Positions 15,400 through 41,881 of a DNA stretch of 64,000 nucleotides are shown here, one piece after another. This stretch comes from Anthoceros angustus. Lineage: Eukaryota > Plantae > Anthocerotophyta. The notes beneath the pieces were generated by a model, which ran no database searches, was not told the origin of the DNA, and saw nothing but the letters and a program-made list of their open reading frames with translations. The stretch lies in NCBI GenBank assembly GCA_010909165.1, contig VJWM01000182.1, positions 1 through 64,000 of the forward strand, read 5' to 3'. The position numbers and the translations under genes were made by a program. The number at the start of each line of letters is the position of its first letter. Position 1 is the first letter of the stretch.

Positions 15400-17905
15400 C
15401 TGCAGGCAAATGGTCGACAAAAGTAACTGGCATAAAACAATGTCATTGCTGCAGTCTAGGTGGAAAGGTCTTCCATTCCGACTTGAGTCTCTGGAGGGCA
15501 TTGCCCATGCACGCTATCCATAACCACTTCCAGTCCTTTCATTTGAGTACGCTATGTGTCTTCAATGTTGTGATTTTCCTCCATCGTAATATCTTTGTCA
15601 GTATGGTCTTCTTCCGCGCCACTGGTGGAGTCCTTTTGTGGCCAAATAGCGTCTAGGGTCTGCTACCCATCATCCAGGATGTCATCAGTACTCTCCTTCC
15701 TTCCGTTAGCTGCCAAACGAACAACCTACGACTGAGACCCATCCTTTTGAGACAAACTCACCTCTTTTGCCCAGAGCTAGGTCAGGCCCTCACAATGTGG
15801 TTTATGATTTAACTCCTCTTCTGCGTCTAGCAGCACTTCGTAGCCATGAACCCTCTAAGGAATAAACTCTGAGCACCTCTTATCTACCTCGATTGCAATG
15901 CAGTTGTGTCCACAGAGCAAGGCTGCCAAAGTCGTTGACCCACTCCCACCATAAGCATCCAGAATCCGATCCCCCTCCTTCGAGAAGCTTTTGATGAGCC
16001 TCGTCATCAAAGCCAATGGCCTTTGATAAGCACAGACCACCAGCTTGTCCAATGATGTGTAAAGCAACTTCTTCACCATTGTAGGATGCCCGATGACTGC
16101 CCTCCCATTGTTAAAAGACCCATGGATGTTACTGGGGATCATGAAAACTTTGATCTTCTTGCTATCCGATGTTAAACCCCACCCTATAGTCACGTACTCC
16201 GTAGTGTCGTTCCTACCCAAGTCATTGTGTATATTTGTTTTGCATAATGAATGTCTCATCTCCGGGACAGTTAAGCCACAATACACATGGGCTTCGATCC
16301 ATTGAAAACATGCCTTTCCTAGTGATATGTCCGCTAGATGCCTCATGGCTGCGTAGGTGTGGTTCCCTTCTAGAGCGCCCATAACGTACTTCTTCGCCCT
16401 AAACCTTTTCCAATCAAGTTGTTCAATGTCCTCACACTCTGCAGGGTCAATCACACATAAAAGTGGAAGGACTCCTTCTTCGATCCTTCCTTTTGCAATG
16501 ACTCGGGCAAGATAGTTTGCCCCCGCCTCATCAACTTTCCGGATCTGGGCATCAGGGGTCAGGAAGGCAGCAGGCCTCAAATTTTTGAGTTTCACCAAAA
16601 TAGTTTCGAGCACCACTTTTTTGGAACGAGCAGACTGAAGTACATTCTTAAGGTAGTCTTCATCCATATGCGACACCTCCAATCGCTCATTGTCAGTGGC
16701 CACGTGAACAATTTGAATCCCATTGCTGTCTGAAGGTCTGATTGCGCGCTTCCCTTTCAAGCGCCTCTGGGTATCTGCCGGATCCACTCTTGGAGTTCTC
16801 GTTTTCCTGCCGCCTGCCTTTGCAGAGGTCCTACGTTTTTTGCGGTTGGGCGAGGCCTCCCCGCCATCACCGTCAGAGTCAAGAGAGGTGCCGGCATGTC
16901 GGTGCCCCTCTACTTTGCATTCGCTGTCGTGGAGGGCGCCGACTTCTTTATCCCCTTCCCCAACATCAGGCCTTCCACCAGCCTCACGGCCCACTTGCAC
17001 ACCGCCCATTGTGCTAGGGTGGCACCTGCCCTAGGATGAATCCCCATGGGCGCCGACATGTCGGCACCCTCCCTCTTCAACCCCCACACCATATCCAGGC
17101 ATAAACCACCCAACCTGTGGGGTGCCCAAAGTATCTATGTCGTGAAGGGCCTATAGGGCGCCAACATGCCGGCGCCCTTCTTCCTCCACAAGGTTATAAG
17201 GCAACGTACAAACATCCATGGACGCTCCCGGCAGATTCAACTCGTCCTCCACCATTCCATCCTCCTCTTCCTGTTTAGATGCCCCATCATCTGAATGCCC
17301 TAAGACATCTAAGACGGGCCCATCCTCTTCCTCTGAAGGCCTAAACTCGTTGTCTTCTTCATCTTCCACAAATGCCAGCTCTCCCTAAGCAAAAGCTTCA
17401 AGTCCTTAGCGAGTACTCCTGTATGACATTTCTCGCTTGTGAATTTTGATAGATTGTGCTATTGCTACACACAAGACCCTGTACACAACTCTCTCATCCT
17501 CATCATAGAATTTCCAGCATCACCATTGCTTAGCACAAGACATGAATGTTTCTGACTTACGTTCTGAAAGCACAAGCGAAGACATCACAGGTTACCGTAA
17601 AGGACACTTACAGTCTGTGCAAGCATTACCTCACGAAATTTCAGAGATAAGTCCCTGGGCTCCCACTTATGGGCATTGAAGTTAGACACACTCGAACAAA
17701 TGCTATCTTTATTATGGCCGGGAAGAGTGTCAAATTCATCTGACCTTTCTATGCGAGCACACGCAACTCACGGTGCCCTCGTGCTCCAAGGCAAGTGTTG
17801 CCCACACAACCCAACCAGCCCTCACTCTTTGGTTCAGCAGAGCTCCCGCGTGTCCATCATGACAGACTCCTCATATGAATAAGATGAGGGGATTGGGTTC
17901 CCAGC
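15400..17905 (-). pseudogene. Transposon-derived ParB/Srx-like + beta-class N6A/N4C DNA methyltransferase gene (core ORF 15855-17009), internally deleted
   Basis: ParB-like: QIRKVDE..PLLCVID..ALEGNHTYAAMRHL..AHVYCGL. MTase motifs X-I-II: CAYQRPLALMTRLIKSFSKEGDRILDAYGGSGSTTLAALLCGHNCIAIEVD. A basic NLS-like NRKKRR is present. The same frame continues past in-frame TAG stops. 5' exons are homologous to 59847-60690. Confidence 0.85.
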
Positions 17906-21091: not shown

Positions 21092-21411
21092 GTTGGCCAG
21101 TTGTGGCTTGCACCTCGAGGACCCCCACCATGTTTTGGTTCTGACCGTTTACGCCGAGCTGTGATAGGCTGGATTGCACTCCGTCCCGCTACTCGCCGAT
21201 CTTTGGGTCAATCTGTAAACGCCCCGGCCTTCCGGCATCACGCCCCACTACTCCTAACACTACCGCTGCTTATCACTTAGTGTTGTACAAGCCCAGCATC
21301 ATCATCACCATCCTTGACAAGTGCACCTGAGTCCTATGAACCACTAACGCCGTGACCAATAGTCCCGTACTGAGATCGAAACCCACAATTTGACGCTCAG
21401 CATCAGTACGG

Positions 21412-21820
21412 CTGCGGGCACATGATTGGTGGTCAAGAACGTCACACACCACCAAGGTGCCTCAACAGCCTTGCAACATCAACGGTGATGCACGATCTTG
21501 CAGACCCTAAAATTGCGGTAGCCAACTGCGCCCAGCCTTTGCCATACCTCGCAACCGGTTGTTCCCCTTTTTACTTCCCGCACTTCACAGACTTCACTTG
21601 CCCGGCGCCTGCGGGCACATGATTGGTGGTCAAGAACGTCACACACCACCAAGGTGCCTCAACAGCCTTGCAACATCAACGGTGATGCACGATCTTGCAG
21701 GGGCCTAAAATTGCGGTAGCCAACTGCGCCCAGCGCCTTTGCCATACCTCAAATCGCAACGGTTGTTCCCCTTTTTACTTCCCGCACTTCACAGACTTCA
21801 CTTGCCCGCTGCCCTGGGCA
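21412..21820. repeat. Two tandem copies of a ~197-bp unit
   Basis: CTGCGGGCACATGATTGGTGGTCAAGAACGTCAC... begins at 21412 and again at 21609; the copies differ by small indels. Confidence 0.85.
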
Positions 21821-22536
21821 CCTGCAGCCATCACACACCTTGTCGTTAGTCACGCTTCGCCCACGTGACCTTCAATTCTCCCTAGCCTCTGCCTTCGTGC
21901 AATATCGCCGCTCTCCCGCTCCAAATCGCCCTGCCCCATGCTCTTGCCACTGGCGTGTTGGTGCTGTGTGTGTTCACGCACACGGGCTTTATGCACCGCT
22001 TGCCCTAATGGCATGGTTGTTACTTTTTAGAAGCCGTATCCACGGCATGCCATTCATCCGGCCCCCCAGCCATTTCATCTAGTCTCTGGATGGCACATTG
22101 GTGACAATACCACTCACCATCCGGTATCATCTTGAGCGGAGGCCGTAAGCAGAACACATGGTAGCCTTTGTTTTATTTGTCACACAGTATCATCAGCTCT
22201 GGGTCCGTGATGTGACCACAAAATTCGCAAGGTAAGTCGATCGGTGGCTTCCAAGCCTGTGGTTGTGTCCTCATATCTAGGTTGGGCAGGTGACATGGTG
22301 CCAAATGACGCATGTGCTCCTTGCACCATCGTCCATCTTGTCCTTCCAGCTCAATGACTCCCTGCTCACCCACACTCACCAGACATAAAATCAGACGTCC
22401 GGTACTCACATCCAGCGTGCTTGAAGGCCGATGCTGTAAGTACACAAAGTCCCCTACTTCAAACTTCCTCGCCTTGGGTTTCCATGAGCCACCTCGCGTA
22501 AAGGCATACCGGAGTTGATCTCGGTGTTGTGCAATT

Positions 22537-22568
22537 AACAGCGTCTGGGTAGAAAGGGGTTTCTCCAG
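22537..22568 (+). repeat. Terminal inverted repeat (MTase-side end) of the Sola1-like transposon, preceded by AATT target site (22533-22536)
   Basis: AACAGCGTCTGGGTAGAAAGGGGTTTCTCCAG versus TACAGCGTCTGGGTAAAAAGGGGTTTCTCCGG at 35979. Both abut AATT within the same gypsy integrase codons. Confidence 0.85.
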
Positions 22569-22949
22569 TTACCCCTTCTTGCACATGTCTGAGAATGGAC
22601 CCTTTTTTGCACCATGCAAAATCTGAACACAAATCGGCTGATACATAGCAAACCCTAGTGTTTTCCATGTGAAAGCGATTGCTTTCACATAATATGTGTT
22701 ATTGAAATGCAGCAATAATGACAAGTAACCGTAGTCCACCTTGTGGACTTGTGTATATCGGAAAAAATATTACATTTAGATGCGCAAACATGCGCCACCT
22801 CTACAAACCTAATTTATGCTCACATTCTCAATCGGGATAGATGACGATGGGGAGGGAGCAGGTCCAGGGGAGGAGTATGAGGAAGAGCGTGAGAAGAAGG
22901 CACGTGCCATGAGTTATATGAAGAAACAACGCTCTGGACTTCATAGACC

Positions 22950-23886
22950 TTCCGCCTGCCACCTCCTTCGCGAAAAAAACCGGATGCCCTCGCTTATGGG
23001 GTTTGGTTGTCAATTCTTCCTCATCATTGGGGAAAACCTCATGCCACATTGTCAGATTGATCAATGAAAATGGTGCTCCTTTGCTCACGATGGTGGCGAT
23101 GCAATTGCGGCCTTCGATAATCTTTGCCAATATACCTCACTTGTTCCGGGCACCCATCTATTACCCACTCCCCTCTCTCCGTGAAAAGGTCATAAAGCAG
23201 AACAATAAGCCCTATTGGTTTCTGGTAAGGGCATACAACATGTCCATCGTTTGACACATTGAAGTTTCTTCACGTGGATGTCTAATGAAAGCGGGCATGG
23301 CTCCAATCTCCTAGCACCTTTGTTGCCAGCGCCTTTGCATTTCCTCATATCTTGTGGGGTGGACACCATACCCTCTTGTAAAGTACTCGCAGTTCTCATA
23401 TAGACCTTCCTCCGCAATCAAATTATCTTTCTCCCACACCATGGTATACACACCTCCGCGCTCATACCATTTACGCAGCGCATTCTGAACATCCTGCATC
23501 TGATCTGGACCATGCATAAATATCACTCGAAAGGTTTTGCAGTCCGTTACTGTCATGAACCCATCCATGATTTTTTCATAATCTTCGGATGTCATCTCCT
23601 GATCCCAGGATTCTGCCACATTCCCTCTTGGCAAATCAACAACCAGCAGTTTGTATTCCCGCTTTCCAAGATAGCCGCCATTTTGAATATCACCGATAAT
23701 TACTTGGTACCTGACTTTCTGTTTGCTTTTTGGGACTTGGAACATGGATAGTTTAGCATCATTGTCCTCCTCTGCTAATTATCTCTGAAGGTCTTCCACC
23801 CTCTTCCAGTTCCTTGCTGCGTTGATATGCTCTTTGAAGCTATCTGGAATGACCTTTTCTTTGTACTCTTCTGCCTGCTTCAGAGT
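22950..23886 (-). CDS. Beta-class N6A/N4C DNA methyltransferase domain (3' exon of the transposon cargo gene), frameshifted as assembled
   Basis: Acceptor TTTTTTGGTGCTCGCAG at 23887. Motifs in order: QVIIGDI, YKLLVVDLPRG..WD (motif IV-like), VWEKDN, ENCEYF, VCPYQKPIGLIVLLYDLFTERGEWVIDGC.GT (X-I), GRNCIA. The tail EEELTTKPH matches EEELNHKPH of the 15.8-kb copy. Confidence 0.8.
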
Positions 23887-23949
23887 CTGCGAGCACCAAA
23901 AAAGCATTGTGAAATTTGACGTTGATGGGGGATGCGCAAACAAGTGAGG

Positions 23950-24560
23950 CAATGGCATGGAATTGGCAGTAGAAGTCATTCGGATCTTGCGGGAAGTGTA
24001 GGCGACTTACCCATCCTGTTGGTATGTGCTCGAAAATGTGTGTGGTGCTTTCGACAAACGTGAGTATGTCAGGAAACAATATGGGCAACTCAGAAGCTGG
24101 CTGGGGGAGGAGTTTATTTGGATGCCGTGCAGACCGGCTCATACGTGCATCGGGTGCGAAGCTTCTGGACAAATGTGAGCAGTGTGACAGCCCTAAGGCA
24201 TCATCGGCAGTTGACGACACTAGAACAGCGCTATGTAGATGACATCTTGGGTCCAGGATGACGTTCACAACAAGTGCGCAAGGGAGATAAGTTACCCCAC
24301 TACCCAGTGAACGTGGTGGGAAAACCAAGAAGGGCATGGCCCACGCTCGTCAAGACCGTGCAGTCCTATGCGTTTAGGAAAGGAGGAGAAGGCATGGTGC
24401 TAAAAACGAAAGGAAATGAAGTAGGGGAGCCTACAATAACAGAGCAAGAACGGGCCATGGGATTTGGCACATGTGGCACTCACACGGCTGGTGTGTCTGA
24501 ATCATTCCGGTGCAGGTTGATCGGGCAAGCCTTCGACATGACTTTATGCGATGGCTGGTA
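23950..24560 (+). CDS. DNMT3-like C5-cytosine methyltransferase domain (C-terminal half) within gypsy pol
   Basis: EVIRILRE..WYVLENV (motif VI), YLDAVQTGSYVHRVRSFWTN (VIII), EPTITEQERAMGF..GT..GVSESFRCRLIGQAFD..MRWL (IX-X). It runs into the RT-containing ORF. Motifs I and IV lie beyond the breakpoint at ~23915. Confidence 0.8.
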
Positions 24561-27244
24561 AATGCAGGCTTGGCCATAGAGATGGCCGTGTATCGAAAGG
24601 ATGGCAAGGGGCATCTGCTGATATGTGACGAAGAAGGTGAACCTACACCTGCACCCGAGAAACAAGAACATGCCGCCAATACGGCAGTGTCTGTTTCTTC
24701 GTCGCGGGGGGAAGACCATGAGAATCCGATCGATGATTGGCAAATCTGTGAAGACTTGCAACCGGCTGAGCAGCAAAAGATCCGGGACATGTTACATAGA
24801 AATCGAGGCACCTTGCGTTCAGTTGGGGCCGAGTTGGGGCGGTATGATCGCATCAAGTTCAAGATTACCACTACCACCAATGAACCTGTGTTTCGAAGAA
24901 GACACAAATTGAGTCCCATGGAATGGGATATCGTAGACAAGCGGTGCAAGGAGCTGGCTGCGGTTGGGCTGATTAGGAAGTCGACCTCGCAATATGCTGC
25001 AGCTACCGTGTTGCCACTCAAGAAGGATGAACATGGGGAGTGGAAGGATAGGAGAATGTGTGGAGATTATCGAGCCTTGAATGAAATAACGCCCATGGAA
25101 CGGTATCCCATGCCCACTCCTGACGAGATCTTTGACGCCATTGGAGAGGCCAAATACTTCACCACACTTGATTTTCGATCTGGGTTCAATCAGATTGTGA
25201 TTGAAGAGAAGGACAAGTGCAAGACAGCGTTTTGGGGCAAAGAGCAGCTGTGGGAGTGGGAAACCATGCCATTCGGTTTGAAGAATGCATCCATATATTT
25301 TCAACGAGTGGCTGACTTGGAACTGCAAGGACTATCAGTTGTCAAGTGCTACATTGATGACATTCTGGTGTTCAGCAATAGTCTGGAGGAACACCTTGAG
25401 CACTTAGAAGTCGCTGCTGACGGCCTCTGGTGAAGACCCATCCCGAAATGTAAGTTCGTCTGAGGAGATAGAGTACTTGGGGCATAAGATTGTACCGGGG
25501 GGAGTGCTGCCACAGTTGGCCAAAGTGCAGGTGGTGAGTCTCATGCCTAGACCTAAAGATGTAGGCATACGAGGCGTTCTTGGGGTTGGTGAACTACTAT
25601 CATCGGTTTATAAGAAACATGAGCAGAACCTACAAGCCGTTGTACGAGTTACTCAAGAAGGAAGCCCATTGGCACTGGGAGCAGGAGCAGGAGCAAGCGT
25701 GGTAGGAGTTAAAGGAGCAATTGGCAGAGAGGCCAATGCTTAAAAGGCCCAATTTCGACAAGCCCTTCGTCTTGTATACGGATTGGAGTGCAGTAGGCAT
25801 TGGAGCCGTGCTTGCACAAGTAGATGAGGAAGGGAAAGAGCGGGTCGTCGCCTACGCGAGCAGATCTAACAACACTGCGGAGGCCAATTACTCGTCTTAT
25901 GAAGGAGAGTGTCTAGCTGCTGTGTAGGCGGTTCTGCATTTCAGAGTATACCTATTTGGCCGAAGCTTTCAGTTAGTCACGGATCATCAGCCACTACACT
26001 GGCTGATGACCAACATGAAGCTGAGTGGGAAGCTTGCTAGATGGGTTTTGCTGCTGTCAGAATACGACATGCAGATTGTACACCGGGCAGGAAAGGTGCA
26101 TCTCAATGCCGATGGGCTCAGTAGGAGCCCGATGTGTGGGGCAGGAGACACCACTGGGGCCAGACAAGACTTCGGGTCTACTCAGCACGTGCCCAGTGTG
26201 TACCTGACATTGATGTCCATAGAACCAGGCAGCGAACAGCAGCCATCAGAAGGTGGTTGAGACATATGGAAACTCGAGCATGCCATTCAGTTGTTGAGGG
26301 ATGGGCGTGTAGCTGGTTTGGACGCAATGGCTCTCCAGAAGCTGCAGCGAAGGATCGCTTGCTATACGTACAAGGACGGTAAGGTGTTTGTGGTTGATCG
26401 ACGGGTGAGCAAGGAGGTGCCACCCGTGGAAGAAAGAAAACCATTAGTGACCAAGGTGCATAAGGCCATTGGGCACTTTGGTGTCAGCGAGCACCACATG
26501 TTGAAGAATGCATATACGGTCGGTATGTATGCGATGTGGAGCAGTGGTATCGCGGCGCATGCATGCGATGCGATGAAGGCAAGGTTTACTTGACCATGAT
26601 GTGGTGTTACATTCTTTGCCTATCGAGGATTGTTTTTTGAGATGGTCCGTTGATCTGATGCCTGAACTCCTAGCAACAAGACAGGGCAACAAACACTGCA
26701 TGTTGATGATATAGCACTTTTCAAAGTGGGTGGAGTTGGCTTTTCTTCCGGTCAGAAGCTCCAAGTATCTTGCCGGGCATTCCTGATGTGTTCTTAGCGG
26801 TATGGGGAGAAATGCGGTCTTGTGGACCAAGTCAACAAGTTTCGTGGTGAATTCCAAGCATTGTTGGACCGAAGTCTGATAGACCACCGCCACACCTCCC
26901 GGGATCATCCTCAAGCTGACAGGTTGGCTGAACGGTTAGTACAAACTTTCAAGGATTCTCTTCGCAAGTACTGCACTGAGGTTGAACCCGATTGCTGGGA
27001 TGAGTTATTGCCATATGTGGCATTGGGATATAGGATCGGTGTCTGGGCAGCCTTTGAACCAACTTATATATTACATCATGTTTGGACGGAATCTTGTGAT
27101 GTCAAATATTGTGGCGGACACCTATTTTTCAGCATGTCTCCATGCACAAGTAGATTGGGCACAGTCGAGGAGAGTGCCTCTTGGAGTTGCAAAACCGAGC
27201 CAATTTGTTTGATAATCCCAATGGCAATGGACAACTTGGCAATT
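24510..27244 (+). mobile_element. Ty3/gypsy pol: RT-RNaseH-integrase, ending at the transposon insertion site
   Basis: RRMCGDYRALN, YFTTLDFRSGFNQI, MPFGLKNA, CYIDDILVFS, LYTDWSAVGIGAVL, YSSYEGECLA, GHFG, RWSVDL, HPQADRLAERLVQT; ends PMAMDNLAI. Confidence 0.93.
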
Positions 27245-27619
27245 CTGATCTGGGTAAAGGGGTTTCTCCGGCAATAAGGGTTTAGGCAAAAGTCCGTCTT
27301 TTCTTAAAAAGCATGAGGATGTTTTCTGGTTTTTAGCATGTGCACTCGGCTTGGAATAGAGTGATCAATTCCAGGGTGCCCCGTTCTGCATGTTTTGGCC
27401 GTGTCTCCATGCACAAGTAAATGAGCCATTTAAGAAGGTGTAAATGAAATGAAATATGTGTTTTGATAGGTTTTCAGCATGTCTCCATGTCATCAAAGCG
27501 TGGGGTTTGCTCGGCTTGCCTCCGGATATGAGTCGTGCTCCGTTCCTGCGGAGAATTATATAGAATCATGAAGCTTGCAAATCAAGCGCGCAATGCAAAA
27601 TCGCTATTTTTCAAATATA

Positions 27620-30600
27620 GGTGCTACTCCTTTGGTGGTGTCTGAAGATCATCTCTTCCATCTACCATTAGGGATCGCAATTATAGAGGACAAACCCGGC
27701 CTTTCTGCTTTTTTTCCTTCTAGTCCGTCGGACGCTGGTTGGGAGCTCTCTTCAAACATGCCTTCTGTAGGATCTCCAATACCTCGTCCGTGTCCATCTA
27801 CAATTGGTCGAACTAATGCTTTGGCGGCATGGACTCGCGGATCATCCTCAACTCGAACATGGTCTTGGGTTTTAATATCATTGACCATGTATTATAAACG
27901 TTTCTCCTCGCCTCAAGGTGGTGGTGGGCCCTTGTCGTTATTCGACTTCGCACTTTGCATATGGTGGAGTTCAAATAGCTTGGTCTTTATGAGCTCTTGG
28001 GTTCTCACATAAGCGTGCTCTCTCGCGTCGGGGCAAATCCATATGAAAGAATAAAGGTCTCCGACACAAAGGCGATCGAGATGCTTGGACGCTTCCGCCT
28101 TTGGCGTAGAGCATTCTTGTCCACTTAGTTGGGTGGCAAAATCTCTTGGTATATAACGACCTTCAAATGCATTGTTGTTCTCCGTTACCCACCATTGCCG
28201 CGACGGTCGTTCGTCACGAAATCTAGGTTCTCCACCTCGCAACCCAAAAGGCTGTTTTTCGCCTCACATGCAGCGGCAATCATATGGCCCTGGATCTCGA
28301 CCACATCTCCGTCTAATACTTTCCTTGCCCTTGCTCCCTTGGATATAATTACCAAGGTACATATGCAGGCCCTCGTTCCTTGATCTGGACCGGAGAAGCG
28401 ACATCGGAAGGATGGTATCGCTATTTCGCTCTACCGATTGTACCCTTTGCCATGGTATCTCTAGCTCATGATCGGCTCCACTGGAGATTTTTTCGTCGAG
28501 CTTGTGACTCCCAAAAGCCGTTCCACCATACCTTGTCGGCCTTTGGTACTACGCATCGGCTCTTGAGTGCCTTCGATGCCCTCAATGATCTATGAGGTTG
28601 GGATGCGAGCTTTCCCATGTACTTAGTGTAGTGCAGGTGCCCACGGATGGGGTTTACGGGATGAGGCGAAGAAACTCAAGTCCCTCGTCGGGTTCCCAGT
28701 GAGGCGTGGTTGATAATATTGCATGACACTACAACCATTACCCGCTGCGCGTTCTTCTCGTGATTTTAAATTGATGTTGATAATATGGTTGTTCAAGCGT
28801 CCAAGCTGCAGCATCCGTGCCCCTTTTACCCATCGAAGGCCATACATACCTTGAAATCCATAACGGTAATCACTTTCCATACGGATTTGGGGTATCGCTT
28901 GTTCAATAAGCGTCATCGAGTTAGTAGCGACATGCCTTCTTATGCCTTAGACTTTTTGAAAAACAAGAGAACATTTGATCCAGAATCATGGGTGTGCCCG
29001 AGAAGGAATCAACTTTAACCTTCGAATACCGCTTCTTCACCAGCATACTCGGATATGCAAACAACGGCATATTCTTGTTCTCCAGCGGTGTTGTCAATTG
29101 AAGGTAAAGGTCTTTGGCAAGACACGTCATAGTTGAGTATAATATCTTGAATAATATGTATCGTCGAGTTGGCATCATTGCGGATGTTCGGATAGTTGAC
29201 ATACACCCCGTCTTCATCACATTATTGTATACCAAACAACCAACAACATGAACACGAATTAACCCATCGAAATCTTTTGGAGGCCCGTGTCGGGAGCTCT
29301 GTCTTGCTCTGGTCCATTCCATCTATGGCAATTCAATATATCGGTGTTGTCCCGCCAGATGCTTCGCTAGCTTGATCGCTCTTGTTTTAAGCGAACTCGA
29401 CCGCGATTCGCTCTCAAAGCGTTACGCCAAGGAACCATGATGTGAGATTCTTATATTGCATAGAGCATAAGTGCGCAGATTGGGGCTCCACTCGCGAGGC
29501 GCGCACTTTGCGTCTGCGCAGCGCCGATCGGCATGTCGCGCGCGCGCAAGCGCGGCCTTGCGCTGCACGCTGCGGCCGGCGCCTTTGGCGGGGCACTCCT
29601 CTGCATGCCGTCGTGCACTCCCTCTGTCTTGGCCAAGTCGCGCACTCCCTCGCTGCGCACACTTGAGTCCTTACACTTGGACCTACCTTGATCTCGTCGA
29701 TCGTGTCCCGATATGTCTTGATAGTTTTGCGTACACATTTGGAAGCGGCACGGGATCTTGACATTTGGGAAGTGCATCTTCGCATAAAATGAGAGTGAGA
29801 TCGTTTGACATCCGTGCCACCTCCGTTTGTAGTCTTGGAAGATCTCTCCCTTTATAGGGTCGGCGGGTTGAACAACGCGTTGGCATGCGCTCTGCGGATA
29901 TCTTGAAAAATTGGTCCATCAAGCAATGCATTCTAGCACATGGTCTTGCTTTGGACGGGCTTGGACCTTCATTCTGACCATGGTGTGTTAGGACAACCAC
30001 ATTGTCGGATCGTGATACCTTCTCCATCAATGCAGAACACCTTGCGAAAACTTGAACACAACATTGCGTTCGAGGTCTCGGAGGTAGGTTTGATCACCTT
30101 TGGGATAGACTTGAACTACCTCAAGCGGACTTTCCAAATCTGATTCTTGTTGCTCTCGACCCATTCCCAAGCGATACCGGGTTTTCTATATGTTTCCTTC
30201 CAACTTTCGGCAAACATCCTTTGCTACAACAATCACGACCATGCACTCTGAACACTCATTGGAGCACAACCTTTGAGCACGCTTCCGTCTGGGATATTGC
30301 CGGCGTTTTGAGGCGGCACGCATGAAAGTCTCAAACAAAGCTTTGGGATTGAAGTTTGCTTAAAGTCCTCCAAAATCATCGTGATGTAGCAATCTTCGAT
30401 GGAAAATGGAAACGTCTTGGTGTCGCGAGAATGGCCGCGCCGTCAAAACCTCTTCTTTGGCTGTGAGCCCGTCACAGCCACTTCCATGTTAGGGATCTTG
30501 TCCAAGGTTAGGCCTTGGAGAAGAACTTCGTCATTCTCTAATGGAGTCGTATCCATGACCATTACCCGTTTTGGAATAAGCATCGGTATCAGTTTTCATA

Positions 30601-30750
30601 AAAGCGACACTGTCGATGTCCGATACTCTGCCCTCTTGAGGCGATTTGAAACTCCTCTACATTCAGCGTCGAATGCCAGCTTTCTCCCGATTACGCCGTA
30701 TTTGGAGGAGTCACTGCATTGCGGATATCTTTGGATCAAAGTATCCACAT
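27620..30750 (-). pseudogene. Sola-like DDD transposase, frameshifted as assembled
   Basis: CCSKGCLP, FCIGWRRY, WMDQFFKISAERMPN, (I)DGMDQSKT, RVHVVGCLV, LYLQLDNTA.ENKN, FL.GHTHD..DQMFSCFS; reconstructed across frames and against the second copy. Confidence 0.8.
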
Positions 30751-30900
30751 GGTGTGAGGCGAGAATGTGAAAAGGATAGTGGCCCGTAATCTAAACGTTC
30801 AAATTAGGGGACTTCATGGTTGGACATGATGGCGGCCGCCACAAAATAAACTCTCATAGCGGCAACCCGGCCGGGTGAAGTTTAGTAAACCCTAGGTTCT

Positions 30901-32185
30901 TGTGGGCGACTTTTCTTAACCCGGGCGCGCGATCCGTGTCGTTGTAGAGGATTCGTTCCACAATGGACTCGTGCTTGATACACGAGCTCTACAACCCGCT
31001 GAGCGGACTTCATCATGTTTGGTCCGGCTCCACAACCAAGTTTATGCCCCTCCACAACTCGTCGGACGAGGCCATGCACCGGACCTTCCACAAACCGCCG
31101 GGTTTCTCCGGTACCAGAGCGAGGTTTAGCGGCGCTTTCCTCGAAATCTCGTACTCTAGCGCCCGGCGCTCCTCAACTCTGCCCAGCCACAACTCACCTC
31201 GTCACCACGCCCGCCGCCCTCCTGCCATCCCGGCTAGTAGTCACAACACCAACACGCCCGATGTATTCGCACCGGGCCTTTGCCCCGTGCTTCACATTGA
31301 AGAATGTGGTGCTTTGCAACTCCACAACCTGGTTCAGCCTCGAGGGGATGGTTTCCACCGGAGTCACCCCAGCTAATCCCTTGGGCCTTCACGTTTTGCG
31401 GAAGCTTGAGCTGCAACCCCACGGCCTCGTTCCGGCTGACCTCGAGTTATCTCACACGGAAAATCACCCTCGACACCTCCTCGTAGCAGTCGAGTCCAGT
31501 CCGCACGCATCAGCGTGTTGGCGGAGCTCGTCACGAAACTCTCAACACATCCCTCTACCACCAATTAATCACCTTGCGGTGGCCTTGAACCTCCGCTCCT
31601 CGAACACGGAAGGCGAGAGCACACTGAGTGCACGATGAGCCACAAGGGATAGTCGCGGTCTAGGCGCCTATATGCCCACACACCTAATCTAACCCGCTAT
31701 GTATGTACCCTAACCACAGGTACGTAGTAACTAGCCAAAAGCTCATCATTCCATCGGACTTCGTCCACCAGTTGCTTCCCATGCGGCGATCCGTTCGAAC
31801 CATACCATCGGACTAACCCGCGGCGGACCACATCCGGACTAAGCCACTGACGAGACTCCATCGGACTAAACGCCCGGCCGGTTTCTCCGTCGAGCCTCGG
31901 CGGACTTACTCCGTCGAGCATGGCTCGGACTTACTCGTCGAGCGCGCTCGGCGGACTTACTCCGTCGAGCCGCTCGGCGGACTTACTCCGTCGAGCGCCG
32001 CTCGGCGGACCACTCGATCGGACCCGCCCGACGGACCTAGGGTCTAGGGATTGCACACTAAGTGCAATCGGCCAAAAGCCAACCTTATTGGCTAACTCCT
32101 CCTATCCCTCTTAGCAGTGGTGACGAAAAAAGCGAAACAAGACTAAAACAAGTCGCCGAGTACGGACGCCAGTTGGCACTCCACA
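30901..32185. mobile_element. Solo-LTR-like insertion, ~1.3 kb
   Basis: Termini TGTGG...CCACA. Shares the terminal GCGACTTT..GATCCGTGTCGTTGTAG with the LTR at 42633. Contains ~25-bp CTCGGCGGACTTACTCCGTCGAGC repeats at 31890-32010. No clear TSD. Confidence 0.6.
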
Positions 32186-32509
32186 TATCATAACCCTTGG
32201 TTAAAAACTTCGAGTTGGTAGTGTAGTCAATTAACCATGGTTGCATCTTAGCAGGGCATCCTAAAAGCAGGAAGAGCCGTTTTTAGGGTTAAACTGAGTT
32301 ATGGGCGCGGTGCGCGGTTGATGTTTCCTCGGCGTTTGCGGTCCAATTGCGGGATTATGCAGGTTGTGTGGCTGCTAAAGGCAATCGATTGGGCCTTGGG
32401 AGGCGCGACCAGTTCCAGTGAGCAGGCGGATCCACGGGCGCCTCGGAATTTCGATGGGGATCCGGTGATCGATATGCTCTTAGGAATTTTTCTGCGAGAG
32501 GATTGTAGA

Positions 32510-33000
32510 GCCCATGTGGGCGAGGATGCCATGGGCGCGCTGGCGGGCTGAGACGCCATGGAGGCGCGCGAGGGCACGCTAAGGCGCCGGATGGGCTTGC
32601 TTGTGGGCGCCGGATGGGCTTGCTTGGCGCCGGATGGGCTTGCTTGTGGGCGCCCACATGGGCTTGTGAGGCGCCCATGGGAAACTGCTTGTGGGCGCCC
32701 ACATGGGCTGTGGGCGCCCATGGGAGCAGGCGCCCATGGGCTTGTGGGCGCCCACATGGGCTTGTGGGCGCCCACATGTTTCTGTGGGCGCCACATGGGC
32801 TTGCTTGTGAGCCCACAGGCTTCTTGTGAGGCCACATGGGCTTGTGGGCGCCCACATGGGCTTCTTGGGCGCCCATGGGCTTGTGGGCGCCCACGTGGGC
32901 TGCTGTGGGCGCCCATGGGGCCTTGTGGGCGCCCACATGGGCTCTTGTGGGCGCCCACATGGGCTTGTGGGCGCCCACAGCAAACTTTAACATGGCGCCA
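32510..33000. repeat. GC-rich palindromic minisatellite (~20-bp unit ATGGGCTTGTGGGCGCCCAC)
   Basis: About 20 imperfect units; the core TGTGGGCGCCCACA is self-complementary. Confidence 0.9.
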
Positions 33001-33065
33001 CAAGCACAAGGCGTGCCCTCGAACGCCTACGCCAGGCTTCACGCAGGCGCTTCGCCGGTTCTTGT

Positions 33066-33818
33066 CACTACTAGGAAAGCGGGTCTTTACAGCGGAAATT
33101 ACAGCGGCATTACTCGACTTTCGTGGAAGTCGGTTGTAAAACCCTCAAGTAATAAACACACCTTAGTAATGTCGGTAGTAAATATTCATACTAATTATCG
33201 ATGGCTATACATGTTATATCACGGTATTGTCTGGTATCGTTATGCGACTTAGCGGATGGTCGTATATTGGTTAACCTTTAGCGCCTTTACTACGGACAAT
33301 ACTACGATGCACCTAGCGCGTTTTACAACTTCACTAACCATAGTTAATATATTATAGTTAAGTAATCAAGGTTACTTGACTATGGTTTACTAACTAGGAT
33401 TAAGTAGCTGTTGTTACATAACCCCATCTTGATTGGTGTTATCACGGTTAATTAAACTCAATGGTCTCTGTAAAGGCGTACCTTGTTGTAAATGTCGGGT
33501 TGTCAAGGTGCGGTCCTTTGCGGACTTTTAAACCTTGATGTAAAGGGGGTCGTTGTAAATGTTAAACTTTACAACGACCCCTGTGTAAGGAACCAGTTGT
33601 AAAGGGTTAGTAAAGAGCTATCCCTTTACAGCGACCCTGTTGTAATGGAACCTCGTTGTAAAGAAATGGGTTTAGGATTAGGGTCCTTTGTAAAAGTATT
33701 GTGTGTGAACTAAAACCCGATTCGATGTAAATCTCGGAGTCTCTTGTATAAACATCCACCTCGGCACCCAAAACATCACCTCGACCCCCACTAGGACCGA
33801 CCGCCACAATCCATCTTG
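33066..33818 (+). mobile_element. CACTA-type transposon end with subterminal repeats
   Basis: Begins CACTACTAGGAAAG. Many (GTC)GTTGTAAA/TTTACAAC motifs in both orientations, including the hairpin GGGGTCGTTGTAAA-N8-TTTACAACGACCCC at 33546-33581. Confidence 0.7.
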
Positions 33819-34624
33819 TGTGGCGCGACTTTGTTGTGGTAGGCGCGCCTGATCCGTGTCGTTGTAGTAAGTCAGTTCAGAGAATGATAGCTCCGTTTGC
33901 AGCGTTAGGCCGATCCCTTGCGTCCGGCTCAACTTTAACACACATCGTCGTTTCGTCTAACTACTCCGCGTTCGAGCAGGCCGGTGTGGCCAAGCGTTTA
34001 AGGACCGTTTGCGTCCGTATCGTTCGCCGTCACTCGTCCTTTAGTCCGTTCCTCTCATCACTCTCACTCGCTCATCAACCTTGGAAAGAGCATGAAGTAG
34101 CTACGGTCCGGACCTCCTCCGTTGCTCAGCGGGCCTCTCGTCGGGCTCTGCGCCCTCCGGAGTTCCTCCGGCTCACACGTTCGGTCCGCTCGATCTTTGG
34201 GCGGCTGCTGGGCGAACACGGGTCCCATCGCTCTTCCTGCACACACCACCACGTTAGGGTCCGTCACGGGACCTTGATCGATCTCTCGGGGCATCGTGCA
34301 CCTTTCGATGACTCGGGACTCACGTTAGCGAAGACACACAGGTGCAAGCAGCGGCATCAACACCAAGAAGATGATTTATTCAGCCTCGGCCCTCTTATAC
34401 TCGCCCAAGTCGGCGTCTTTATTACACCCTATTATGGTGGCCAGCTCGATGCCCTAATCGACCGCCTACCATCCTATTCCTCCCCTCCTATCTCCTTTCG
34501 GTGGTGGGCACAGGAAGGTCACAGGTTCCGTCTCGGATTGGTGGTCAATCTCCCGTCGGCAGTTGCGGCGCGCAATCGGATGATCGCGGGACCCCTTCCT
34601 CTTCCGGAATCACAGCGGGTTGGG
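33819..34624 (-). mobile_element. Truncated copy of the LTR at 42633-46821
   Basis: Appears identical to 42633-43438 (offset 8814). Confidence 0.8.
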
Positions 34625-35978
34625 AAGGAAAGAGCGGGTTCGCCTACGGCGAGATCTAACAACACTGAGGCCAATTACTCGTCTTATGAAGGAGAGTGTC
34701 TAGCAGTGTAGGCGGTTACGCATTTGAGTATACCTATTTGGCGAAGCTTTCGATTAGTCACGGATCATCGCCACTACAGGGATGACCAACATGAGTGGGA
34801 AGCTTGCTAGATGGGTTTTCTTTTGCGCCGAATCGACATGCAGTGTACCCGGCGGGGAAAGGTGCATCTCAATGGATGGGCTCGTAGGAGCCCGATGTGT
34901 GGCGAGGAGACACCACTGGGCGAGACAAGACTTGGTCTACTCGACGCGTGCCCGGTGTGTACCTGACATTGATGTCCATAGAACCGGTGACGGCGACCAT
35001 CGGAAGGTGGTTGAGACATATGGAACTCGAGCATGCCATTCGATTGTTGAGGGATGGGCGTGTAGCTGGTTTGGACGCAATGGCTCTCCAGAAGCTGCAG
35101 CGAAGGATCGCTTGCTATACGTACAAGGACGGTAAGGTGTTTGTGGTTGATCGACGGGTGAGCAAGGAGGTGCCACCCGTGGAAGAAAGAAAACCATTAG
35201 TGACCAAGGTGCATAAGACGCTGGGGCACTTTGGTGTCAAGCGAACGCACCACATGTTGAAGAATGCATACTTCTGGTCAGGTATGTATGCTGATGTGGA
35301 GCAGGTGGTATCGCGGTGCGCTGCATGCGATGCAGTGAAGGCAAGGTTTAACAGCCATGATGTGGTGTTACATTTGCTGCCTATCAGGGGATTGTTTTTC
35401 AGATGGTCCGTTGATCTGATGCCTGAACTCCTAGCAACAAGACAGGGCAACAAACACTGCATGTTGATGATATAGCACTTTTCAAAGTGGGTGGAGTTGG
35501 CTTTTCTTCCGGTCAGAAGCTCCAAGTATGCATTCCTGATGTGTTCTTAGCGGTATGGGGCTCTTGGGGTCTTGTGGACCAAGTCAACAAGTTTCGTGGT
35601 GAATTCCAAGCATTGTTGGACCGGTCGATAGACCACCACACCTCCGGATCATCCTCAGTCGAGGTTGGTGAGCAGTTAGTACAAACTTTCAAGGATTCTC
35701 TTCGCAAGTACTGCACTGAGGTTGAACCCGATTGCTGGGATGAGTTATTGCCATATGTGGCATTGGGATATAGGATCAGTGTGCAAGCGGCACTGGGCAA
35801 CTTCAGCCTATATTACATCATGTTTGGACGGAATGCTGTGATGTCAAATATTGTGGCGGACACCTATTTTCAACCGGTAGATTGGGCACAGAGTCCAGGA
35901 GAGTGCCTCTTGGAGTTGCAAAACCGAGCCAAGCTGTTTCAGCGAGTAATCCCAATGGCAATGGACAACTTGGCAATT
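34625..35978 (+). mobile_element. Duplicated gypsy RNaseH-integrase segment
   Basis: HKTLGHFGVKRT..YFWSGMYADV..CAAC (HHCC zinc finger), FFRWSVDL; ends RVIPMAMDNLAI. Confidence 0.9.
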
Positions 35979-36010
35979 TACAGCGTCTGGGTAAAAAGGG
36001 GTTTCTCCGG
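35979..36010 (+). repeat. Terminal inverted repeat (transposase-side end) after AATT (35975-35978)
   Basis: TACAGCGTCTGGGTAAAAAGGGGTTTCTCCGG, 29/32 identical to 22537-22568. Confidence 0.85.
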
Positions 36011-36399
36011 CAATAAGGGGTTTAGGCAAAAAGTCCGTCTTTTCTAAGGCAAAAACGCCGCGGCGGGATGTTTTTCTGGTTTTTAGCATGTGCACTCGGC
36101 TTGGAATAGAGTGATCAATTCGGTGTGCCCGTTACATGTTTTGGCGCTACCGTGTCTCCATGCACAAGTAAATGGGCCATTTAAGAAGGTGTAAATGAAA
36201 TGAAATATGTGTTTTGATAGGTTTTTCAGCATGTCTCCATGTCATACAAAACGTGGGGTTTGCTCGGCCGGCTTGCCTCCAGATATGAGTGCGCGCACAA
36301 GTGTGCGCACTCACGTTCCTCATGCGGAGAATTATATAGAATCATAGAAGCTTGCAAATCAACTGCAATGCAAAATCGCTAGTTTTCACATATAGGTGC

Positions 36400-39300
36400 T
36401 ACTCACTGGCTGGTGTACAGCAAGATCATCTCTTCCATCTACCAATAGGGATCGCAATTATAGAGGACAAACATGGCCTTTGCCGTTTTTCCTTCTAGTC
36501 CGTCGACGCTGGTTGGGAGCTCTCTTCAAACATGCCTTCAAAAACCCCGACTGGGTTAGGATCTCCAATACCTCGTCCGCGTGTCCATCTCGCAATTGGT
36601 CGAACTAATGCTTTGGCCGGCATGGACTCGCGGATCATCCTCAACTCGAACATGGTCTTGGGTTTTAATATCATTGACCATGACTGTATTATGAAACGTT
36701 TCTCCTCGCGCCTCAAGGTGGTGGGCTGGGCCCTTGTCGTTATTCCCAGCTTCCGCACTTTGCATATGGTGGAGTTCAAATAGCTTGGTCTTTATGAGCT
36801 CTTGGGTTCTCACATACAGCATGCTCTCTCGCGTCAGGGCAAATCCATATGAAAGAATAAAGGTCTCCGCCAGCACAAGGCGATCGAGATGCTTCGGACG
36901 CTTCCGCCTTTGACGTAGAGCATTCTTGTCCGCACAGTTGGGTGGCAAAATCTCTTGGTATATGACCTTCAAATGCATTGTTGTTCTCGTTACCCACCAT
37001 TGCGACCGAATCAGTTCGTCGGAAATCTAGGTTCTCCACCTCGCAACCCAAAAGGCTGTTTTGGTCATCCGCCTCATGCACGGCAATCATATGGCCTGGA
37101 TCTCGGCACATCTCTCTAACTGCACTTCCCTTGCCCTTGCTCGCCGGGATATAATTACCAAGGTACATTGCCTTGGCCCTCGTTGCATCGGACCGAGAGA
37201 AGCGAACATCCGCACAAGGATGGTATCGCTCGCTCCTCTACCCGATTGTACCTTGCCATGGTATCTCTAGCTCATGGTCACGGATTTGAGATTTAAATCG
37301 GGCTTGTGACTCCCAAAAGCCGTTCCACCATACCTTATCGGCCTAGTGCTTGCATCGGCTCTTGAGTGCCTTCGATGCCATCCAATGATCTATGAGGGTT
37401 GGGATCTGGAGCTTTCCCATGTGTAGTGCACAGAGGTGCCCACGGATGGGGTTTCGGGATGAGGCGAAGAAACTCAAGTCCCTCGTCGGGTTCCCATGAG
37501 CGTGGTTGATAAATATTTGCGCGCACTACAACCATTGCCCGCCTGCGCGTTCTTCTCGTGATTTTAAATTGATGTTGATAAATGGTTGTTCAAGCGTCCA
37601 AGCATCCGTGCCCCCTTTTACCCATCGAAGGCCATACATACCCGGAAATCCGCAACACCGGTAATCACTTTCACTTACGGATTTGGGGTATCGCTTGTTC
37701 AATAAGCGTCATCGAGTTAGTAGCGACATTGCCTTCTTATGTCTTAGACTTTTGAAAAACAAGAGAACATTTGATCCACAGAATCATGGGTGTGCGACAA
37801 GAAGGAATCCAACTTTAACCTTCTCGAATACCGCTTCTTCACCAGCATACTCGGATATGCAAACAACGCATATTCTTGTTCTCTCGTGTTGTCAATTGAA
37901 GGTAAAAGGTCTTTGGCAAGACACCGTCATAGTTGAGTATAATATCTTGAATAATATGTATCTTCAGGTTGGCATCATTGCGGATGTTCGGATAGTTGAC
38001 ATACACCTTCGTCTTCATCACATTATTGTATACCAAACAACCAACAACATGAACACGAATTAACCCATCGGCGAAATCTTTTGGAGGCCTTGTAAAGTGC
38101 GGAAGCTCTGTCTTGCTCTGGTCCATTCTATCTATGGCAATTCCAATATATTGGCTCGGTTGTCCCGCGCACTTCAGCCGATGCTTCGCTAGCTTCAGTC
38201 GCTCTTGTTTTAAGAACTACATGCGACGATTCGCTCTCAAACGCGTTACGCCAAGGAACCATGACGATGTGAGATTCTTATATTGCATAGGAGATAAGGC
38301 GCAGATTGGGGCTCTTTTGCGCGAGGCGCGCCTCAGTGCGCGCCGTCTGGCCCGCCTGCGCAAGCACTTGGCGTGGCGCAAGCTTGGCGCACTTGGCTGT
38401 GCCAGCGCGTGCGCGCGCTGCGCCTGCACGGGCCTCCTGCACGCAAGTGCGTGCACTCCTCCTCGCGCGCTGTGCGCGCACTCCCTCGCTTGCGCGCAGT
38501 CCTTACACTTGGACCTACCTTGATCTCGTCGATCATGTCAGATGGCCGTCTTGATAGTTTTCTGTACACATTTGGCTTGGGATCTTGACATTCGGAAGTG
38601 CATCTTCCATAATGCAAAATGAGAGTGAGATCGTTTGACATCCCGTGCCACCTCCCGTTTGTAGTCTTGGAAGATCTCTCCCTTCGTATAGGAGTCAGGC
38701 AGGTTGAACACTGCAACGTTAGGCATGCGCTCTGCAGATATCTTGAAAAATTGGTCCATCCAAGCAATGCATTCTAGCACATGGTCTTGTTTTGGACGGG
38801 CTTGGACCTTCAATTCCGATGACCATGGTGTGTTCCGGACAACCCCGTTCGTCAGATCGTGATACCTTCTCCATCCAATGCAGAACACCTTGCGAAAACT
38901 TCGAACACAACATTGCGTTCCGGTCTCCGGACAGGTTTGTTGTGTCGGGATAGAGTTGAACTACCTCAAGCGGACTTTCCAAATCTGATTCTGTTGCTCT
39001 CGACCCATTCCCAAGCGATACCTAGGTTTTCTATATGTTTCCTTCCAACTTTCGGCAAACATCCTTTGCTACAACAATGCGACGACCATGCACTCTGAAC
39101 ACGCTCATTGGGAACACAACCTTTGCACGCTTCCGTCTGGGATATTGCCGGCGTTTTTGAGGGCTGGCTGCATGAAAGTCTCGCAAAGCTTTGGGATTGA
39201 AGTTTGCTTAAAGTCCTCCAAAACCGTCATGTGATGTCGCAATCTTCGATGGAAATGGAAGCGTCTTTATGTGATGGAGAATAAGCGCCGTGTCGAGCAT

Positions 39301-39600
39301 CTTCTTTGGGATGCCACGTCACAGCCACTTCCTTGTTATCTTGTCAAAGATTAGGCCTTGGGAAGAAGAACTTTCTTCTCTAATGGAGTCGTATCCATGA
39401 CCATTACCCGTTTTGGAATAGAAGCATCGAGTAGTTTCCATAACACTGTGTGATGTCTCGATATGCCACTCTCGGAGGCGATTTGAAACCGCTCTCTGTC
39501 CTCTACATTCCGCGTCGCAATCGAATGCCATGTGCTTCCCCGATTACGCCATATGTTTGGGGAGGTCAGCATTGCGATATCTTTGGATCAAAGGTATCCA
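36400..39600 (-). pseudogene. Sola-like DDD transposase, duplicate copy
   Basis: MDQSKTELPHFTRPPKDFADGLIRVHVVGCLVYNN..NDANL..LPKTFYLQL..RENKN; WMDQFFKISAERMPNVAVFNLPDSYTKGEIFQDY. Confidence 0.8.
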
Positions 39601-39753
39601 CAAGGTGTGAGGCGAGAATGTGAAAAGGATAGTGGCCCCGTAATCCGACGTTCAAATTAGGGGACTTCATGGTTGGACATGATGGCGGCCGCCACAAAAT
39701 AAACTCATAGCGGCAACCCGGCCTTGGGTGAAGTTTAGTAAACCCTAGGTTCT

Positions 39754-41050
39754 TGTGGCGCGACTTTTCTTTGACGGCCCGGGCGGCGCACGATCCGTGT
39801 CGTTGTAGTAAAGGATTCGTTCCACAGAATGGACTCGTGCTTATACACTTTGAGCTCTACAACCTATCGCTGAAGACTTCATCATGTTTGGTCCGTGCTC
39901 CACAACCAAGTTTATGCCCCTCCACAACTCGTCGGACAGCCTGACCACGGACCTTCCCACAAACCCGCGGGTTTCTCGATACCAGGAGCAGTTTAGCGGC
40001 GCTTTCCTCGTGATCTCGTACTCTGGCGGCGCTCCTCAACTTCTGCCCAGCCACAACTCCACCTCGCCTGCCGCGCCCTCCTCCATCCCGGCTAGTAGTC
40101 ACAGCACACGCGCCCGATGTATTCACCGGGCCGCCTTTGCCCGTGCTTCACATTCGTAAGCTTTGCAGCTTGCAACTCCACAACCTGGTTCAGCGGCCTC
40201 GAGGATGGTTTCCACCGGGTCACCCCAGCCCCTAATCCCTTGGTGCCTTCACGTTTTGCGGGGAAGTGGCTTGCTAACCCCAGACCTCCGTTCCAGCCTC
40301 GAGTTAGTCTCACACGGAAAATCACCCTCGAGCACCTCCTCGGCGCAGTCCGACCCGGTCGCACCCATCAGCGTGTTGGCGGAGCTCGTCACGAAACTCT
40401 CAACACATCCCTCTACCACCAATTAATCACCTTGCGGTGGCCCAGAACACCTCCTCCTCGAACCACGGAAGGCGAGAGCACAGTGCGAAGATGGTGCGGG
40501 ATAGTCGCGGTCTAGGCGCCTAGGCCTCCTGCTTCCCACACCTAATCTAACCCGCTATGTATGTACCCTAACCACAGGTGGTAGTAAGCCAAAGGCGTAG
40601 CTCATCATTCCATCGGACTTCGTCCACCAGTAGCTTCCCGCCATACGGCGGATCCGTTCCAGACCATGCCATAGGACTAACCCGCGGCCGGAACACATCC
40701 GGACTAAAGCCACTGAGAACTCCATCCAGACTAAGCCGCCCGGAGTTTTCCGTCGAAAGGCTCGGCGGACTTACTCCGTCGAGCGCCTTCGGCGGACTTA
40801 CTCGTCGAGCGCGCTCGGCGGACTTACTCCGTCGAGCAGCTCGGCGGACTTACTCCGTCGACGCCGCTCGGCGGACCACTCGATCGGACCCCGCCCAGAC
40901 GGACCTAGGGTCTAGGGATTGCACACTAAGTGCAATCGGCCAAAGCCACCTTATTGGCTAACTCCTCCCTATCCCTCTTAGTGTGACGAAAAAAGCGAAA
41001 CAAGACTAAAACAAGTCGCCGAGAATGCGGACGCCAGTTGGCACTCCATA
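39754..41050. mobile_element. Duplicate of the solo-LTR-like insertion
   Basis: TGTGGCGCGACTTT...GGCACTCCATA; colinear with 30901-32185. Confidence 0.6.
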
Positions 41051-41815: not shown

Positions 41816-41881
41816 TGAGACACAGGCGTGCCCTCGAGACGCGCCTACGCCAGGCTTCACGGTGGCGCTTCATGTTCTTGT

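Follow-up and report, generated by a model that had tools for sequence, protein, structure and literature searches.

Remains of a Gypsy retrotransposon with a DNMT3-like methyltransferase domain and a PHD finger in the hornwort Anthoceros angustus

The DNA analysed here (the window) comprises the first 64,000 nucleotides of contig VJWM01000182.1 of Anthoceros angustus (assembly GCA_010909165.1). It contains, in two pieces, the remains of a Gypsy retrotransposon with a DNMT3-like cytosine methyltransferase (DNMT) domain before the reverse transcriptase (RT) and a PHD finger after the integrase, an identification that is close to certain. The pieces are as follows (identifiers with P denote related proteins, and those with L loci carrying relatives):

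23957-24121 (+): part of the DNMT3-like domain with motif VI (ENV) and the helix that follows motif V; matched by family profile positions 114-168 at E 1e-6
24121-24545 (+): next part of the DNMT3-like domain, with motifs VIII (HRVR..WTN), IX and X and the target-recognition region; family profile positions 152-310, E 7e-50
24546-24737 (+): last DNMT helix (MRWLV) and linker in the RT reading frame, stop-free; open reading frame (ORF) 24501-25433, tblastn of P0017
24738-25713 (+): reverse transcriptase, YIDD near 25350, frameshifted after 25412; Pfam RVT_1 7.9e-20, tblastn
25574-26260 (+): RT connection followed by RNase H, broken by stops in frame at 25703, 25925 and 26258; Pfam RT_RNaseH 1.7e-37
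26261-27244 (+): zinc finger and core of the integrase, with frameshifts and a cut end at AATT (27241-27244); tblastn of P0016, P0138 and P0202
22092-22536 (-): detached 3' half that holds the C-terminal region of the integrase and the PHD finger (22229-22095); P0016 residues 770-925, E 4e-50, Pfam PHD 8.9e-10

RT, RNase H and integrase stand in the order of Ty3/Gypsy elements by both Pfam and tblastn, which agrees with the Gypsy assignment made by the first-pass annotation of this DNA, and the DNMT3-like motifs that it saw fused ahead of RT lie where it placed them. The frame from 23957 reads YVLENV; beyond a frameshift near 24121 follow DAVQTGSYVHRVRSFWTN, EQERAMGF and RCRLIGQAFD (24121-24543), and RT begins at 24738. 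The last DNMT helix is in the RT frame with no stop or intron between them, and therefore DNMT and RT were once parts of one polyprotein. Because the shift in the window lies inside this last helix, it was not accepted as a programmed frameshift between DNMT and RT.

The window copy is dead and cut at its 5' end, because Gag, the protease and methyltransferase motifs I-IV are missing. The surviving element starts at 23957. Profile positions 1-113, which include motif I and the catalytic cysteine of motif IV, are absent from all six frames of the window, and the N-terminal parts of four of four relatives, in which Gag and an aspartic protease are present, match nothing in it; a search of the rest of the window for the missing 5' part found none. 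The two DNMT pieces are each interrupted by an in-frame stop (TAG at 23999, TGA at 24259), and the frameshifts within the domain may reflect either decay or read errors. Thus, the protease that had been supposed to precede the methyltransferase is not found in the window, and the proposal that this copy encodes both a chromatin writer and a histone reader fails on the loss of motifs I-IV, the two stops, the frameshifts and a PHD finger that is not intact.

The methyltransferase domain was identified with a family profile of length 316, built from 12 DNMT domains of relatives with the window excluded. This profile matches window positions 24070-24543 over profile positions 152-310 (158 bits, E 7e-50), and also the first piece, 23957-24121; in 20 shuffles of 23950-27244 the top score was at most -1.7 bits in 19 and there was no match in one. 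Pfam DNA_methylase and NCBIfam gave no methyltransferase match on the window pieces, an outcome that the first-pass annotation had said would speak against its claim, whereas the family profile upheld it. The curated profiles miss the window piece because Pfam matches this family mainly around motif IV, which is deleted here. The C-terminal half of the domain, taken alone from the window, had no match in the PDB, and a word-indexed search with the window DNMT piece returned 114 candidates of which none passed, although a full HMMER scan did find relatives.

Searched against the PDB, the family profile ranks DNMT3A (7e-23) and DNMT3B above DRM2 (6e-10), M.HhaI (4e-9) and DNMT2 (7e-7). An AlphaFold model of the domain of P0003, a relative, and not of the window's own piece, was predicted with a mean local confidence (pLDDT) of 88.5 and matches DNMT3A/3B with a template modelling (TM) score of 0.72 at about 21% identity. 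The motif order is unpermuted, and motifs VI (ENV), VIII (RxR), IX and X are present in the window piece. By these profile rankings the domain stands nearer to DNMT3 than it does to DRM, to DNMT2 or to enzymes of bacteria. Among 123 near-complete family domains, a set that includes near-duplicates, the catalytic cysteine and the motif VI glutamate are kept in all 123 and the two motif VIII arginines in 122 and 121; the motif I glycine is kept in 107 of the 107 domains covering that site. The window domain retains the motif VI glutamate and both motif VIII arginines. Median ratios of nonsynonymous to synonymous substitution (dN/dS) are 0.385 for DNMT and 0.347 for RT (102 of 171 pairs from 19 metagenome loci, dS 0.05-0.3; 60 pairs were saturated and 9 outside the range), which shows that selection on the relatives' DNMT domain has been purifying.

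A PHD finger after the integrase had also been proposed, and it is borne out by P0016, which runs from the integrase into the 3' half. Two fingers match Pfam PHD, one in the 3' half (22229-22095; 8.9e-10, 38.9 bits) and one at 1798-1932 (3.2e-9, 37.1 bits), against a cut-off of 24 bits. The further claim of a complete C4HC3 finger fails for both, which keep seven of the eight ligands: the fourth cysteine is a stop in the 3' half and an arginine in the piece at 1292-1938. Relatives such as P0016 and P0015 have all eight. The nearest solved structures are the fingers of ATXR5, WSTF, KDM5A, BAZ2B, CHD4 and UHRF1, most of which read unmodified histone H3 tails. The piece at 1292-1938, described in part as a paralog (1455-1942) by the first-pass annotation, is only 53% identical to the 3' half, shows no DNMT in view and is a fragment of a different family:

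1292-1938 (+): integrase end plus PHD finger (1798-1932) from a different family in the same clade, a fragment; Pfam PHD 3.2e-9

P0016 is continuous over both halves of the element, its residues 220-778 matching 25574-27244 (+) and its residues 770-925 matching 22559-22092 (-). Both halves finish in AATT followed by the same transposon end of about 28 bp, which belongs to a terminal inverted repeat (TIR) DNA transposon. The duplicated sequence downstream is listed with these ends:

27245-27268 (+): left terminus of the TIR DNA transposon that divides the integrase, from comparison of both halves
22537-22565 (+): opposite terminus of this transposon, which shares the inversion of the 3' half and has AATT (22533-22536) before it
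34623-35978 (+): second copy of the RNase H-integrase part, within an 8.8-kb duplication; Integrase_H2C2 9e-17

This arrangement is read as insertion of the TIR transposon into the integrase with a 4-bp target duplication, followed by an inversion that would have split the element. Stretches of the transposon occupy 22537-23950 and 27245-33400, with a DUF7869 transposase-like sequence at 28924-29322 (-) (Pfam 3e-9); with its DUF7869 transposase and AATT target we take it to be Sola-like. The frame at 23311-23949 (-), which is unassigned, shows no more than a weak methyltransferase-like match (AviRa, E 0.025) and no significant similarity to the N6/N4 methyltransferase frame at 15858-17030 (-) described below. 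The two units of the tandem duplication (25828-34624 and 34623-43438) are 87% identical with 361 gap openings. These values suggest long-read sequence that was left unpolished, in which case read errors may account for some of the frameshifts; the duplication may itself be an assembly artefact.

The element has many relatives. Of 110 longer proteins retrieved with the window RT, 15 carry Pfam DNA_methylase, among them three of the top six, and 14 carry PHD. The window DNMT half alone retrieves 448 clusters at E<=0.001 in the full HMMER scan. Among the best 150 of these, seven have DNMT before RT (layout A), 33 have RT before DNMT, 34 more have DNMT beside the integrase or after RNase H (layout B), and the remaining 76 either are fragmentary or have neither RT nor integrase. 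The polyprotein order of layout A is protease, DNMT3-like methyltransferase, RT, RNase H, integrase and PHD finger, and the whole of it is found within the single proteins P0138 and P0202. Layout B characterizes a sister clade in chlorophytes in which DNMT lies between RNase H and integrase. Named carriers are Closterium (layout A), Hariotina (with P0191) and Scenedesmus (layout B) and Cymbomonas, where DNMT is followed by integrase. Clade proteins extending from RT to PHD occur in Coleochaete and in the liverwort Calypogeia fissa, in annotated frames that begin past the position of DNMT; loci L050 and L073, whose RT is 81% and 76% identical to that of Calypogeia P0165, carry the domain. DNMT precedes RT in 38 of the 41 metagenome loci that reach 1.5 kb upstream of RT, out of 80 loci chosen by RNase H that are partly redundant and mostly of one family near P0138. 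As judged from these carriers, the clade is wider and older than described. Searches of viral contigs yielded three distant methyltransferases (23-28% identity), none of them near an RT, and thus no sign of a viral source. No sequencing run is listed as matching 23950-27244.

Two observations concern the form of the domain in other elements. In Tetraselmis P0184 a related DNMT stands beside the integrase together with a Copia-type RT, which suggests that the domain also entered a Copia element. In loci L004 (4661-4669) and L014 (5083-5091) an in-frame TAG separates Gag, protease and DNMT from RT, and a matching site occurs in L050, L060 and L073; CARYYA comes next in the first two and the other three read TAG CAACCC, whereas the window copy is without such a stop. 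CARYYA after a stop is the read-through context of tobacco mosaic virus. With a TAG in this place, DNMT would be produced at Gag levels. The frames of L004 and L014 are intact, and chlorophyte relatives have stop-free polyproteins.

The terminal repeats are split in several relatives. Four integrase-type elements begin with a repeat A at the 5' end and close with B-A-B at the 3' end, a run of G standing before the first B:

L012, 2597-12688: split-repeat integrase-type element
L017, 3341-12692: split-repeat integrase-type element
L053, 1611-11099: split-repeat integrase-type element
L056, 159-8728: split-repeat integrase-type element

At the inner B/A junction the sequence copies the element's end joined to its own start. 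Among 45 loci with enough DNA past the PHD finger, a B1/B2 pair is seen in 17 (one doubtful, several redundant), an A1/A2 pair in five and both in four. Relatives have TG..CA ends, and two of the four full elements show clear 4-bp target duplications (ATGT and TGAC). The window copy has no 5' end, and its sole repeat is a tandem pair of 197-bp copies (94% identical) at 21409-21808, downstream of the PHD finger on the minus strand; these copies may be what is left of the 3' repeats of the element.

A tree of the RT-RNase H region was computed from 58 rows, namely the window and 57 of 60 chosen proteins (three were too short). It sets 36 clade rows apart from 22 other Gypsy rows with support of 100/100, unites layout B at 100/99 and recovers layout A weakly at 71/75. 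The window row forms a branch of its own, no more than 61% identical to any other row, and its RT is 50% identical to that of the moss-like P0138; by this placement the window copy is a separate hornwort-type lineage of the clade. In unrooted quick trees of the 46 rows that have both domains, computed without host DNMT3 sequences, DNMT and RT each part layout A from layout B with SH-aLRT (approximate likelihood-ratio test) values of 97 and 100, and both place the window in layout A. Pairwise DNMT and RT distances are correlated over the 46 rows (rho 0.57, 0 of 999 permutations) and within layout A (rho 0.53, 1 of 999). That the two trees divide the layouts alike points to one old capture and a later move of the domain; a single Dnmt3 capture followed by relocation within the polyprotein fits the trees but is not proven. 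In full, a PHD-bearing Gypsy lineage would have taken up Dnmt3 once, before the chlorophyte/streptophyte split; the domain would have changed its place in the polyprotein and come down, together with RT, to prasinophytes, Sphaeropleales, zygnematophytes and each of the three lineages of bryophytes. The chances of this full scenario are judged even.

The closest known system is KnitGypsy-Dnmt3 of Klebsormidium nitens, a Gypsy element with a Dnmt3-like domain (de Mendoza et al. 2018, PMC5890265). As described there, it shares with the present elements an intronless, unpermuted Dnmt3-like domain in the Gypsy Pol frame, purifying selection (seen here in relatives) and split repeats: KnitGypsy-Dnmt3 has a DIRS repeat structure, with A1 and A2 around the ORFs and two B repeats around A2, and the four relatives above read A1, ORFs, B-A2-B. 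It differs in that the host of the window copy is a land plant and the copy is dead, and in that a PHD finger follows the integrase here; the main text of that paper does not mention one. The window element belongs to the KnitGypsy-Dnmt3 kind as matched by described features, not by sequence kinship; no protein match named Klebsormidium was among the homology search results. SymbioDIRS-Dnmt3 and SymbioLINE-Dnmt of Symbiodinium, treated in the same paper, likewise are retrotransposon-borne C5 methyltransferases, and the DIRS enzymes methylate CG in yeast. They are described as tyrosine-recombinase or LINE (long interspersed element) retrotransposons of dinoflagellates, from separate captures, with no DDE integrase bearing a PHD finger.

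Other comparisons were made from published descriptions. Gypsy-7a_cRei of Chlamydomonas (bioRxiv 10.1101/2022.06.16.496473) is a green-lineage Gypsy polyprotein with a PHD finger and insertions biased to intergenic DNA, but its listed domains include no methyltransferase and place the PHD finger before the integrase; the comparison is by description only. EpiLTRs of Cymbomonas and Euglena (bioRxiv 10.64898/2026.05.21.726589) are long terminal repeat (LTR) elements that also pair a DNA-methylation writer with a histone reader; their DNMT is reported as sister to DNMT4 and occurs with an adenine methyltransferase and a chromodomain, and the authors set them apart from the Gypsy-DNMT3 of streptophytes. 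Phygy and Selgy (Neumann et al. 2019, PMC6317226) are chromodomain-less, non-chromovirus Gypsy elements of a moss and a lycophyte. Compared by description only, they differ in that the available text mentions neither a methyltransferase nor a PHD finger, and Phygy prefers NCGN targets; a Phygy-like CG preference is not seen in the two clear target duplications of our relatives, ATGT and TGAC. Later papers cite Gypsy-DNMT3 as streptophyte (PMC12344493; bioRxiv 10.64898/2026.05.21.726589). The range given by the first-pass annotation, dinoflagellates and Klebsormidium, is indeed in print but proves too narrow, since Closterium and chlorophytes have the same set of domains. Its statement that it knew of no land-plant case agrees with full-text literature searches, which gave no land-plant report and none of layout B, figures, supplements and subscription papers being outside their scope. 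New here are the hornwort-type lineage and the chlorophyte sister clade with layout B; the kind itself is known from Klebsormidium.

The window also contains an intact gene that is not part of the element:

4941-7199 (-): PPR-E-DYW gene (pentatricopeptide repeat protein), KP type; Pfam DYW_deaminase 2.3e-34

It has Lys-Pro at the place of the PG box and a C-terminus of DRR. The DYW:KP type is reported to be restricted to hornworts, lycophytes and ferns, with a DRH variant in hornworts (PMC9478123, PMC11897456). On the evidence of this one gene a land-plant host is close to certain and a hornwort is likely. The gene may encode a U-to-C editing factor, and a cytochrome b5-like steroid-binding frame, judged by eye, follows it near 3550-4324. 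At 15858-17030 (-) a stop-free frame of 391 residues ends in an N6/N4 DNA methyltransferase match (Pfam 4e-12; CcrM-like 5e-6), with what we take to be a ParB-like motif upstream; this enzyme may be transposon-borne or bacterially derived. RIC1 host gene exons, an unrelated Gypsy RT and a further transposase-like frame (the last by eye) occur in the stretches 9717-12544 (-), 48154-49488 (-) and 57708-58487 (-).

For active copies the favoured reading, held with confidence slightly better than even, is that DNMT travels with RT and methylates cytosines of the new cDNA, and that the PHD finger binds unmethylated H3 tails and so steers integration away from active promoters. The protease would free DNMT inside the particle, where the enzyme would meet the cDNA made by RT and methylate it; the integrase's PHD finger would favour nucleosomes without H3K4 methylation, and the new copy would arrive pre-marked in quiet chromatin, which would be its benefit. 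The position of DNMT, its conserved chemistry and the selection on it support a role in transposition; protease release, packaging, cDNA methylation and its sequence context, the PHD target and the benefit are inferred. Several points weigh against this reading. KnitGypsy-Dnmt3 gave no methylation in yeast, a test in which human DNMT3B failed too and which was called inconclusive (PMC5890265). The CpG observed/expected ratio is 0.66 in the element and 0.67 in a nearby host gene, and thus gives no sign of heavier methylation. Motif IV reads EC in 50, PC in 34, DC in four and SC in two of the 90 readable domains among the best 150 of 448 clusters; L004 and L014 are of the PC type and P0202 is of the EC type. 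The dN/dS pairs are decayed, partly redundant copies, mostly of one moss-like family and not of the window's. DNMT is missing in three of the 41 informative metagenome loci, P0054 lies inside the clade without a DNMT match, Closterium proteins P0027 and P0035 end without a PHD finger, and the correlation of DNMT with RT distances is weak within layout B (rho 0.20, 60 of 999 permutations).

The conserved catalytic residues would also suit a DNMT that acts in the nucleus once integration is over, either on host DNA or on inserted copies; the PHD finger would then tether it to chromatin, like the ADD domain of animal DNMT3, rather than guide integration. Layout B, with DNMT directly before the integrase and PHD finger, favours this possible but doubtful alternative, and the 2018 paper leaves self-limiting or host-beneficial roles open (PMC5890265); yet in layout A RT, RNase H and integrase intervene between DNMT and PHD, and most DNMT molecules in the five loci with the in-frame stop, which parts DNMT from RT and PHD, would be without a finger. 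It is also conceivable, though unlikely, that the domain persists because it binds DNA or RNA or serves another step of replication, with cytosine methylation weak or absent. The negative yeast test of the Klebsormidium enzyme (PMC5890265), EC at motif IV in more than half of the readable domains and the split repeats without a standard LTR pair in relatives are compatible with such a role, but binding alone would hardly need the invariant cysteine, motif VI glutamate and motif I glycine.

Two further explanations concern the origin of the sequence. The region is rearranged and indel-rich, with the 8.8-kb duplication at 87% identity and an abrupt start near 23957, as might be expected of an accidental fusion, in which part of a host DNMT3 came to lie beside an ordinary Gypsy RT, or of a nested insertion or assembly chimera with the same result. 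This is hardly credible given that the closest RT relatives share the domain at the same place (15 of 110, three of the top six), that the window DNMT and RT both fall in layout A, that the last DNMT helix is in the RT frame without an intron, and that 38 of the 41 informative metagenome loci carry DNMT before RT. The named relatives are mostly algae, and the element could be algal or moss DNA acquired by contamination or recent horizontal transfer instead of a native hornwort-type lineage. Such an origin is very improbable: the same sequence carries the DYW:KP gene, whose type is confined to hornworts, lycophytes and ferns, the element is decayed and interrupted by another transposon, and its RT-RNase H row, on its own branch, is at most 61% identical to any other, with RT 50% identical to moss-like P0138.

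DNA methylation normally silences transposons, and a transposon with a de novo methyltransferase inverts this picture; what such transposon-borne enzymes are for has been a question since 2018. The broken window copy itself offers no function to study. Bryophyte copies, the intact frames of L004 and L014 and the stop-free chlorophyte polyproteins would make the question testable in tractable plants and algae. The history shifts from an oddity of Klebsormidium to an old green-lineage clade. If the proposed history and mechanism are true, the Klebsormidium case would be one twig of an unrecognised green-plant clade that writes 5-methylcytosine on its own cDNA, reads unmethylated H3 and replicates by split repeats.

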